A stretch of DNA of 64,000 nt from contig CAZFAO010000006.1 in assembly GCA_964516875.1 (NCBI GenBank), positions 17,049 to 81,048 on the forward strand, in the 5' to 3' direction. The stretch is from an uncultured Burkholderiales bacterium. GTDB taxonomy: Bacteria; Actinomycetota; Acidimicrobiia; IMCC26256; JAGPDB01. Shown here piece after piece: positions 52,401 to 55,400 of this stretch. Every line of letters starts with the position of its first letter. Position 1 is the first letter of the stretch. Made by a program: the position numbers.

Positions 52401-55400
52401 GACGTCGTAGTGGTCGCTCAAGGCCATATCGAGGCCATCGGTGCCATTATCGGCCACAGAAACGGCAAATCCCTCGCTTCTGAGGCGCACGGAGAGTGCG
52501 TTTGCGATATCGTCTTCATCCTCGACGATCAGGATCTGCTTCTTCACCCCACCAGTCTACGTTTGTCCAGGTCGCGACCACCTGGTCGAAATGTGGAGGT
52601 TTTGTGCAGAATGGGCAGGAATAGGCTGACGCTATGCTTCGTTGTATTCGTAACATTCCCCTAATTAGGCATTAACGAGAGGCTATTTAACGACGAATAA
52701 GTCCTTAGTACACAATATAAATAAGGATACCTATGGCCTGGAGTGACTCTTCGAGAGACTCATCAGATTCAGCGCACTCATTGAGTAGTGGCGTCTTCAG
52801 TGCTGCCGGTGTACAGGTCAAAGCCATGGCCGGTTCTTCTTTTACCACCGATGTCATCCGTGTTGAACGTTTGGGTGTGGAGAGTGCTGTAAAAATTCTG
52901 ACTCCGAACGCAACAAAAGATCCCGATCTTGTTTCACGTTTTCTAAAAAATGCTCGCTACAACCAAAGTCTTAATGAATTTACCGGGATGAGAATTACTG
53001 AGATTGTCGAAACGGGTCCGCGTCCATACTACGTGATGGAAAAAGTTGCCGAATCATCGTTGTTGGAAATAATTCGACAGCATGCTCCTCTTGATCCTCG
53101 ATGGTTAGCAACATTGCTGTTGCCCATTGCGCGCATGCTCGACACGATTCATCAACGAAGTGTGTTGCACGCAAATATTAAGCCGAGCAATCTTTTGGTG
53201 GTTGTGGAAAATAACCAAGAAAAATTTCTTCTTGTTGATTACATGGAACCGACTCTCGCTGCAACATCTGCAACATTGACGGGCGCTGGAGTGTACGCTG
53301 CGCCCGAATTTCGTGCAGGTACGCCCGTGTCGAATCGATCCGACATTTACTCGTTATCCGCTGTGATGTACGAGGCGTTGAGTGGAATCGTGCCGGGCAG
53401 TTCTTATCGCGGGGCCGATGGGGTTTTCCATGTTTGGCGTGCTGGTGACAGGCCACGCGAGTTATGCCAAGTGAACCCAGAAATCAATCGCACAGTATCG
53501 GAAATGATTATGCATGGGGTTTCGCCCGATGCAATTTCGCGTCCAGCGAGTGCAACGGCTTTGGTGGAAGAGACTTTGCGCACGTTAGAAGTTCCACGCA
53601 CGCGCGTGGAAGTGAAAAAGGAAGTCGAGCCCGATCATCAACCTGTACCCATGTTGCTTATTGCAGCAGGTGTATTTTTGACCATCCTTCTTTTGTTCGG
53701 AGGATACAAACTGTTAACCGGCGCAGTTGGCGGATCAGATACTCCGCAGGCAACGTCGACGAGTGCTCAAACAACAACGACAGAGAACACAGCGGTGACA
53801 AACTTGACGGCAAACGAACAAAAAATTATTGCGTTGCTGCCATCGGTTGATGGAAATCAAACATGTCCACCAAGTGCTTCGACGAGAAATAATCCACAGT
53901 GGGCATTGAGTATTGCAGAGTTGGAATGTACGTCTGATGGCGTGACAGATTTGCGATACGGTCTGTTTTCTAATTCAACAGATCAAAAAGCAAACTACCA
54001 AGGCCAAGCGTTAACAATGAGCGATGAAGTTCAAGCTGCTGGCGGGAAGATCGTTGGCAATACGGGAGGAAAGATTCCTTGCTCGACGAATCAAAATGAA
54101 AGTGGTGGCTGGGGAGACAACGAACAGACCGGAAAAATCGGCGGTCAATACACCTGTGTATCACTTCCACACCCACGAATTGTTTGGACCGACACAAGGT
54201 CGGGGCTGATTGGCGATGCTGAACTTCGCAACGGGAATATTGCTGACCTCATTCAATGGTGGTCATCAAAGGGAGGGCCGATCGGCTAATGGAACTTACA
54301 CTTACTGTCCAGCCACCTGCAGCGCCCGCCGTTGATGTTGATATGACTGTCGATGCGTCGCGACCTATGCGCGATGTTGTCGATGCACTCGTTCGTGCAA
54401 CAGGTGTACCTCCCACGTTGAGTAGCGATATGAGTTTGTATGTTCCGCTTCGCGATGCTTGGTTGAATAATGAGATGACTGTTTCTCAAGCGCGATTGCG
54501 TATGGGAGAAGTTGTTGTTCTCGGTCGAAACATGAACACGTCGTCTGTGATTATTGGTGACGTAGTTGAAAAGACGCGCACCTCCAAGAACAAAAAATCA
54601 ACGAGTCCAGCCTCTGCGTATGAGCTGTGTGTCGTGTCGGGTCCAGAGAATGGAACACGAATTTCGCTCACGCCGAAAAGTTTGGTCATTGTTGATCGAC
54701 GTGGCAGTGTCCGCGTGAGTGACGCAAAATCAATGTATAAACGACGTCCAGCTGAACCTGAAGAAATGACGACAAATGAAAGTAACCATCATTTTAAATT
54801 TGAGGGTATCACCGAGCTCGACGCAGCAGCATGTCTTCTTGAAGTCGATCGAACAATATTTTTCTCACCTATCACAGGCGAAGTGAGCGTAGAAGTTCGT
54901 CGAGCAAAAGAACGAACGGAACTCGATGAGCACGCAATGATTTCGTGTGGGGGAGTGTTCCTCTTTATTCGACGAAAAGTTGTCGACGAGCCTCTGTCGG
55001 TTTCTGAACGTGGGATCGTTGCGATCAACCGACCACCTCGCAACATGCAACCACCGATGGAACGAATCATTGGTATCGAAGCGCCTCCGCGTGATGCGCA
55101 AAAGTCTCGTATTTCACCTGTCATGATTGCAGTGCCAGCAATATTTGGTTGTGTGATGGCAATCGCGATGAGCAATGTGATGTTCCTTGGTTTTGCTTTT
55201 ATGTCGCCCGTGATGATGCTGGGTCAAGCGTGGGATTCTCGACGCACGGGAAAGAAAGATTTCAGGTCGGGCAAAGCAAAATACGTTGCCGATATCGATG
55301 CAGCAGTTGCACAACTTCGCATTGGTCGTCGTGAAGAATTAGCAATTCGACGAATTGTATTTCCCGACGCAACTGATTGCATGTCACGTGTGCTCGATGG

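Follow-up and report, generated by a model that had tools for sequence, protein, structure and literature searches.

Predicted ubiquitin-like and degenerate FHA domains fused to a type VII secretion ATPase encoded next to a pseudokinase in an Acidimicrobiia lineage

The subject of this analysis is the gene of a type VII secretion system (T7SS) ATPase of the EssC/EccC type, located at 54289..58881 (+ strand) in a 64-kb stretch of contig CAZFAO010000006.1 (assembly GCA_964516875.1; the whole stretch is called the window below). The host is a member of the Acidimicrobiia with a low GC (guanine plus cytosine) content of about 47–49%. Our results favor, with some reserve, the view that the first ~274 residues of the 1530-amino-acid (aa) product are a cytoplasmic assembly module in which a flexible linker joins a ubiquitin-like (Ubl) domain to an FHA domain that no longer binds phosphothreonine (pThr); of the identities of the Ubl and FHA domains themselves we are highly confident. 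The gene immediately upstream encodes a membrane pseudokinase. Two points appear to be new. One is the fusion of a Ubl in cis to an EssC/EccC ATPase, of which we found no description in the open-access literature searched, and the other is the joint decay of the FHA domain and the kinase in this Acidimicrobiia lineage. The architecture itself is not rare, and there is precedent for its mechanism.

The interval 54289..55230 encodes residues 1–314 of a single open reading frame (ORF) that ends at 58881. The mechanical ORF call begins 11 codons upstream of the ATG at 54289, which is the better start on four grounds: a GGGAGGG Shine-Dalgarno-like run lies 12 nucleotides (nt) 5′ of this ATG (MELTLTV…), the ATG and the stop codon of the upstream gene share 1 nt (TAATG), the full-length homologue search returned an identical NCBI protein of 1530 aa (P0001), and the N-terminus reads MEL(T/N)LTVQ in 11/11 close orthologues.

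The homologues fell into two groups. Clade I comprises the 11 close orthologues, with 61–81% identity and none annotated as containing FHA. Clade II comprises about 40 relatives with 28–37% identity from Actinomycetota such as Blastococcus, most of them with Pfam FHA and Yop-YscD_cpl matches. The N-termini of the two clades align along the entire extension. A word-indexed search with residues 1–288 gave zero matches and missed even the identical P0001, a result that we read as a limit of that search and not as uniqueness. The metagenome-assembled genomes behind L006 (CAYMMG010000007.1) and L007 (CAZLQP010000015.1) carry the same actinobacterial locus at 67–82% identity and in full synteny; their titles, "uncultured Burkholderiales bacterium," are probably taxonomic mislabels.

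The ORF product is predicted to be a type VII secretion ATPase. Pfam FtsK_SpoIIIE matched it in three stretches (3e-67). Among the NCBIfam models, EssC (TIGR03928; E 3e-173) and EccCa (TIGR03924; E 1e-109) stayed below their cutoffs (578 bits vs. 778 and 368 bits vs. 509, respectively), and EccCb (TIGR03925; E 1e-108) passed its own (363.7 bits vs. 346.55). A motif scan located three Walker A motifs, GTTGSGKS, GTSSSGKT, and GGRGTGKS, starting at nt 56413, 57472, and 58345 (all + strand), and the layout is an N-proximal two-helix membrane hairpin followed by three FtsK/SpoIIIE P-loop domains. The protein could instead be an FtsK/TraB-type DNA translocase whose N-terminal domains serve another process; sources name its homologues "DNA segregation ATPase FtsK/SpoIIIE," and the small ORFs downstream are not recognizable as WXG100 genes. 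This is extremely improbable. The FtsK and TraB models gave only 3e-22 and 2e-8 against the 1e-108 to 3e-173 of the secretion models, the three P-loops and the N-proximal hairpin occur without the Ftsk_gamma, FtsK_4TM, and FtsK_alpha domains present in true FtsK matches, and WXG100 genes flank the ATPase homologues of loci L003 and L004.

A Kyte-Doolittle scan placed the transmembrane hairpin at residues 275–314 (55111..55230, +), and in the AlphaFold2 (AF2) model a helix begins at residue 277. An earlier note on this DNA had set the two helices at about residues 285–330, which is too far downstream; the N-terminal extension that it described is present and close to the proposed size, with a length of ~274 instead of ~280 aa. 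Between the FHA domain and the hairpin, conservation in the alignment defines a pre-membrane linker (residues 231–274; 54979..55110, +) with an NRPPR…APP motif that begins at nt 55027. R248, P250, P267, and P283 are invariant or nearly so in both clades. The motif is the counterpart of the (H/Y)RSPR…PP stretch before the transmembrane helices in the EssC/TsxC alignments (PMC11217815, Fig. S2).

Residues 1–80 (54289..54528, +) were assigned to a ubiquitin-like beta-grasp domain by AF2 modeling, Foldseek, and profile comparison. The AF2 model covered residues 1–292, from an input alignment that included FHA-bearing sequences, and had a predicted local distance difference test (pLDDT) score of 82.7. 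In residues 1–80 the score was ~90–95, and the topology was beta-beta-alpha-beta-beta-(short helix)-beta. Foldseek matched this part to ubiquitin and SUMO chains in the PDB, with target-normalized TM-scores of 0.67–0.78 and root-mean-square deviations of 2.5–5 Å. In the PDB, the Ubl family profile matched ubiquitin designs (1.8e-7), and from a library of 1.84 billion proteins it also retrieved true polyubiquitins. When the two clades were re-aligned independently, hhalign related the clade I Ubl to the clade II Ubl with a probability of 97.2% (E 4e-11). The suggestion that these residues form a beta-grasp of the ubiquitin/YukD type was thus borne out at the level of the fold. As for YukD in particular, its Pfam model reached 5e-5 on one relative (P0095) and 9.5e-4 on a clade II member, and a precomputed Pfam record has YukD, FHA, and FtsK_SpoIIIE together on one 919-aa protein. 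The domain has no C-terminal Gly-Gly; the sequence runs through VVVLGRNM into a Ser/Lys/Thr-rich disordered linker (residues 81–108; 54529..54612, +), with pLDDT <50 over residues 90–106 and with orthologues that differ in both length and sequence.

Residues 109–230 (54613..54978, +) form a degenerate FHA domain according to AF2, Foldseek, and hhalign. The region is a beta-sandwich (residues 110–230) in the model of residues 1–292. To avoid bias by FHA-bearing sequences, the region 106–232 was also modeled separately from the 12 clade I sequences only, which gave a pLDDT of 82 and a predicted template modeling (pTM) score of 0.76. Nearly all of the top 50 PDB matches of this second model were FHA domains (OdhI, GarA, CT664, KIF1A, YscD/PscD), with a best E of 3.5e-4. 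In hhalign, the clade I region matched the canonical FHA domain of clade II with a probability of 87.6% (E 3.5e-6), against 0.3% and 11% in the cross-domain controls.

Sequence libraries returned much less. Pfam FHA (PF00498) had no match in the ATPase or in its 11 close orthologues, the clade I profile of the region had no match in the PDB even at E 10, and FhaB at E 0.03 was the sole NCBIfam match on the N-terminal extension. These negatives, and a Foldseek E that is modest at best, are what a generic beta-sandwich would give, with the FHA assignment an artefact of alignment or prediction. We hold that explanation to be very unlikely, since the model built without FHA-bearing sequences still retrieves almost only FHA domains, the hhalign match stands far from its controls, and the region lies between the Ubl and the transmembrane hairpin, exactly where full-length homologues have their canonical FHA domain. 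What supports the FHA identity is the homology to FHA-bearing relatives together with the fold search, and not sequence libraries.

The residues with which an FHA domain reads pThr are gone. The GR, SxxH, and NG motifs are each present in 0/12 clade I proteins, compared with 27/28, 26/28, and 24/28, respectively, in clade II; the position aligned to GR reads V-D. The description of the region as FHA-like at about residues 110–230 holds for its fold, and the Gly-Arg, Ser-x-x-His, and Asn signature that the earlier note proposed to look for is lost in full. The canonical SxxH loop is replaced by a disordered insertion of ~30 aa (approximately residues 146–177; 54724..54819, +), which is confined to clade I in the alignment, varies over a range of ~25 residues among orthologues, and has a pLDDT of 39–66 in both models. 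Clade I has instead its own conserved motifs, EGIxxxDAxA and (E/Q)(L/I)DEHAM. The DEHAM residues are among those invariant within the clade, which hints at another kind of conserved surface. From its sequence, we regard the region as a probable phospho-independent FHA remnant.

The upstream gene (52733..54289, +) encodes a 518-aa Hanks-type membrane pseudokinase, recognized by Pfam Pkinase (1.1e-18; 68 bits vs. a cutoff of 31.7) and by alignment. It consists of a kinase-like domain (~46–293), one transmembrane helix (~305–327), and a Cys-containing extracytoplasmic C-terminal domain. The motifs were called by alignment to PknB and to an active kinase from a relative. HRD is replaced by HAN, the alpha-C Glu by Asn, and DFG by DYM, and there is no Gly-loop; the Lys of VAIK and the Asp of DFG are retained. 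The neighbor of the ATPase had been described beforehand as a pseudokinase, and the Pkinase match together with the lost catalytic motifs confirms it. Equal decay (HRD to HAN or HGN) was found in L001, L005, L006, and L007, which are all the clade I loci that include upstream sequence, and in all of them the kinase gene precedes the ATPase gene. The TAATG overlap indicates translational coupling of the two genes, and the start/stop overlap is kept in L001 too. The kinase adjoining the L003 ATPase, the closest relative with a canonical FHA domain, has all motifs intact.

The distribution of the module was surveyed with the Ubl profile alone and with the full-length ATPase. Searched against the library of 1.84 billion proteins, the profile returned 886 cluster representatives at E ≤1e-3, of which 160 reached E ≤1e-10. 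Among the best 148 new matches, 81 had a Ubl followed directly by FHA, and 37 of these 81 reach the transmembrane/DUF/ATPase region; the remaining ones were mostly short fragments or eukaryote-type polyubiquitins. The full-length search against GTDB, with one genome per species, found relatives in Streptomyces, Promicromonospora, Cellulomonas fimi, Agromyces, Actinomyces oris, Nocardiopsis, Phytoactinopolyspora, Microbacterium, and others. Our own profiles detected both Ubl and FHA in 25 of the 33 GTDB relatives that were reconstructed, and Ubl-FHA-transmembrane-ATPase proteins also occur in many metagenome-assembled genomes. By these sequence surveys the layout is ordinary and widespread in Actinomycetota, so that the earlier description of a Ubl and an FHA domain on the ATPase as an unusual architecture has to be abandoned.

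The pair also occurs outside T7SS ATPases: it lies downstream of a full protein kinase domain in P0156 (905 aa) and downstream of a transglutaminase core in P0188 (1283 aa). Ubl-FHA therefore behaves like a mobile module of two domains.

The gene neighborhoods of the relatives are diverse. Besides the canonical kinase, the L003 locus has a WXG100 gene and a gene for a separate FHA protein, and at ~78 other clade II loci there was no kinase-like ORF within 6 kb of the ATPase. In L002 (1–3463; Blastococcus) and L004 (483–4258), the ATPase gene comes directly after, and overlaps, genes for DUF58 and TgpA-type transglutaminase proteins, and WXG100 or PP2C genes lie downstream. This arrangement recalls the MoxR/vWA-type "Esr" sensing clusters tied to Esx (PMC13622651).

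Such neighborhoods could mean that the Ubl-FHA module is a regulatory input, in which the FHA domain still reads phosphorylation in trans, for example by the intact PASTA-domain Ser/Thr kinase that a domain scan found in the window (19567..21525, +), and the pseudokinase is only an envelope sensor. Relatives do retain canonical pThr motifs, with genes for kinase, PP2C, or FHA proteins in their vicinity, threonine phosphorylation connects FHA output proteins and EccC in Actinomycetes (PMC13622651), and the PASTA kinase of the window is an active one. For the window ATPase we consider this quite unlikely, because the three pThr motifs are replaced in all 12 clade I proteins, a variable disordered insertion takes the place of the SxxH loop, and the adjacent kinase has no catalytic Asp.

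Structural work on T7SSb offers the closest precedent. In the Bacillus subtilis system, as seen by cryo-electron microscopy, the FHA and DUF domains of YukB clasp the ubiquitin-like YukD (PMC12637312), and dimers of the pseudokinase YukC bind the tip of YukB FHA2, efficiently only with YukD (PMC12637312; for YukC on FHA2 see also PMC9600267). The FHA domains of EssC, which are without pThr motifs, bind the pseudokinase EssB (PMC11217815). The ubiquitin-like protein is regarded as a near-universal T7SS component whose role was explained only recently (PMC12637312), and earlier comparative work had YukD only free or fused to the 12-transmembrane EccD (PMC1779556). The window system shares with T7SSb an N-terminal FHA fold without pThr residues, the transmembrane hairpin, the stalk/DUF region, three P-loops, an accompanying gene for a pseudokinase that spans the membrane once, and a ubiquitin-like component, and its best NCBIfam match is EssC. 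The two systems differ in that the Ubl is in cis on the window ATPase instead of being a separate 80-aa YukD/EsaB, in that the window pseudokinase is recognizably a Hanks-type Pkinase and not of the EssB/YukC family, and in that EsaA/YueB and EssA/YueC genes are not nearby in the window. Like YukD/EsaB (PF08817), the window Ubl is a beta-grasp without a C-terminal Gly-Gly that is tied to a T7SS ATPase; unlike them it falls below the Pfam cutoff and is part of a 1530-aa protein. The idea of FHA-pseudokinase docking is thus not a new one, as it describes the solved core of B. subtilis T7SSb.

On the basis of this precedent, the following account has in our judgment somewhat better than an even chance of being correct. 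The cis-fused Ubl would pack on the FHA domain and on the stalk/DUF region of its own ATPase, as YukD does in trans, and would fix the pose of the FHA domain, which would then dock the kinase-like cytoplasmic domain of the membrane pseudokinase constitutively and without phosphorylation; the contact would be constitutive because the pThr-reading residues and the catalytic residues both decayed. A compact T7SS would have the ATPase and the pseudokinase together as its membrane core, with the extracytoplasmic domain of the pseudokinase oriented to the cell envelope. The ancestral contact was probably phospho-regulated, since relatives keep intact FHA motifs near active kinase, PP2C, or MoxR-type (DUF58/TgpA) genes; the Acidimicrobiia lineage would then have hard-wired the FHA-kinase contact in parallel to the Firmicutes. 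Docking of the FHA domain and the pseudokinase at this locus is a reasonable analogy with YukB/YukC/YukD, and it is supported by the translational coupling and by the joint degeneration of the two partners. The two proteins may also be the entire membrane core, as the 64-kb window has no other T7SS membrane component, with genes elsewhere in the genome possible.

Several observations weigh against this account. The Pfam YukD model scored only 14.1 bits on the Ubl domain (E 0.083; cutoff of 27 bits), and YukD is not among the PDB matches listed for this domain in the fold and profile searches. The inter-domain geometry of the AF2 model is unreliable (pTM 0.48). The window ATPase has one FHA domain where YukB has two. 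The pseudokinase matched only Pkinase, PK_Tyr_Ser-Thr, and Kdo at E up to 1, with no match to the EssB/YukC Pfam family; as it belongs to the Pkinase family, the analogy with YukC is one of function and not of orthology. Its retained VAIK Lys and DFG Asp may allow nucleotide binding or residual activity. None of EccB, EccD, EccE, MycP, or other T7SS membrane components is encoded in the window. Finally, the three small ORFs (96, 92, and ~95 aa; 61160–62184, − strand) that the ORF call placed at the WXG100 positions of related loci have no Pfam match, show no clear W-x-G motif (GWEFG occurs in one), and are not recognizable as WXG100 proteins.

An alternative that would dispense with the pseudokinase contact is that the Ubl-FHA module acts within the ATPase only, in autoinhibition or oligomerization on the stalk/DUF region and the first ATPase domain, and that the adjacency of the two genes reflects co-regulation or separate signaling. 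Most module-bearing relatives have no kinase within 6 kb, so a kinase-like partner is not required, and in T7SSa the EccD Ubl touches the DUF domain of EccC (PMC12637312). On the other hand, the tightly coupled pseudokinase is found only in the clade with the degenerate FHA domain, and in T7SSb the FHA domain is the very docking site of the pseudokinase (PMC12637312). On balance, we regard an action confined to the ATPase as unlikely and prefer constitutive docking of the pseudokinase by the Ubl-braced FHA domain.

The remaining T7SS types differ more from the window system. It resembles T7SSa of mycobacteria (ESX) in phylum, in the ATPase core, in passing the EccCb model, and in a Ubl that contacts the ATPase; EccC, however, has no cytoplasmic domain ahead of its transmembrane helices, and its Ubl is on EccD. 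The earlier note had taken it as established that actinobacterial EccC carries no FHA domain. That applies to the mycobacterial-type T7SSa but not to other Actinomycetota, where FHA-bearing ATPases have already been published as TsdC (PMC11217815) and EsrG-EccC (PMC13622651) and where the Ubl-FHA-ATPases described above also occur.

TsdC belongs to T7SSd, one of the types T7SSc–j defined by Garrett et al. in 2024 (PMC11217815). In this actinobacterial type, an FHA-bearing ATPase and a membrane kinase are "surprisingly" without a ubiquitin-like component, and TsdC has a canonical FHA2 (GR 100%, SxxH 98%, NG 90%) in addition to an EssC-like FHA1 region (PMC11217815). T7SSd of Olsenella and Bifidobacterium and the window system have in common an actinobacterial host, an ATPase with N-terminal FHA, an adjoining membrane protein of the kinase family with an extracytoplasmic domain, and few core genes. 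They differ in that TsdC keeps its pThr motifs and TsdD is described as a Ser/Thr kinase, whereas the window ATPase no longer has the motifs and the neighboring kinase is dead. The window has no large immunoglobulin-like secreted protein, and TsdH- or TsdI-like genes were not evident in it, with no search aimed at TsdH. Our FHA profile matched TsdC residues 126–199 at 3e-13. We also considered a hidden Ubl at the N-terminus of TsdC and dropped it at the sequence level: the N-terminus of Olsenella TsdC aligns with EssC FHA1 and has no match to the Ubl profile, for which reason the window system is not T7SSd.

EsrG, an FHA output protein translationally fused to EccC in Actinomycetes, belongs to a sensing pathway of MoxR, vWA, kinase, and phosphatase proteins (PMC13622651, a 2026 preprint). 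The likeness lies in an FHA element fused at the N-terminus of an actinobacterial Esx ATPase and in a MoxR/vWA-type linkage resembling the DUF58/TgpA contexts of L002 and L004. In that preprint, the FHA domain figures as a signaling output under phospho-regulation, and no Ubl is mentioned (PMC13622651); the window lineage has neither the pThr motifs nor adjacent MoxR-type genes, with a pseudokinase instead.

We propose tentatively, with slightly less than an even chance of being right, that the Ubl-FHA-transmembrane-ATPase proteins represent a T7SS subtype outside the T7SSa–j scheme, widespread in non-mycobacterial Actinomycetota and with the Ubl fused in cis. In the Acidimicrobiia lineage of the window this subtype would be a complete two-gene equivalent of YukB/YukC/YukD, reached by parallel loss of phospho-dependence in the FHA domain and in the kinase.

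Downstream of the ATPase gene, divergently oriented ORFs of 261, 478, 96, 92, and ~95 aa occupy 58882..62184 (− strand). They are candidate T7SS substrates or accessory proteins by position only. The equivalent positions of L003 hold ORFs of 209 aa, 457 aa (with a weak T7SS_signal match), 94 aa, and 98 aa (WXG100); the downstream ORFs of the window had no Pfam match and no BLAST similarity to these counterparts. The 478-aa protein (59714–61150, −), the positional counterpart of the 457-aa protein, is helical at both termini, between which lie a hydrophobic segment and then a long repeat region rich in Ala, Gly, and Thr. The three small ORFs had no BLAST similarity even to those beside the L001 ATPase, which is 71% identical. 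If there are substrates here, they are diverging very fast.

The 64-kb window is otherwise of housekeeping content. Domain scans found three large GGDEF-EAL proteins (251–2635, 7381–10482, and 34478–37273), two of them with CHASE sensor domains, and a menaquinone biosynthesis cluster lies at ~38.7–47.1 kb. An 86-nt intergenic palindromic element is present in two copies (45056–45141 and 48576–48661) that are 93% identical, and its core 25-mer occurs only twice in the window. The first copy sits inside an inverted repeat with 42-nt arms; in the second, a C-to-T change in one arm is paired by a G-to-A change in the other. The RNA fold z-scores were −12.6 and −5.3, and Rfam gave no RNA family in the window, the palindromic element included. 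It looks like a repetitive extragenic palindromic (REP) or miniature inverted-repeat transposable element (MITE) type of repeat.

For the T7SS family, a natural Ubl-FHA-ATPase fusion is independent "Rosetta-stone" evidence that the contact between Ubl, FHA, and motor is ancient and general, and it carries this contact to Actinomycetota beyond the ESX type. Surveys based on domains miss the module, as Pfam detects neither the Ubl nor the FHA domain in clade I. A core of two proteins would be a simpler object for structural work. The canonical FHA domain in most relatives, set against an FHA remnant and a dead kinase in this lineage, makes a testable case of how a phospho-regulated dock could turn constitutive, in parallel to the Firmicutes.

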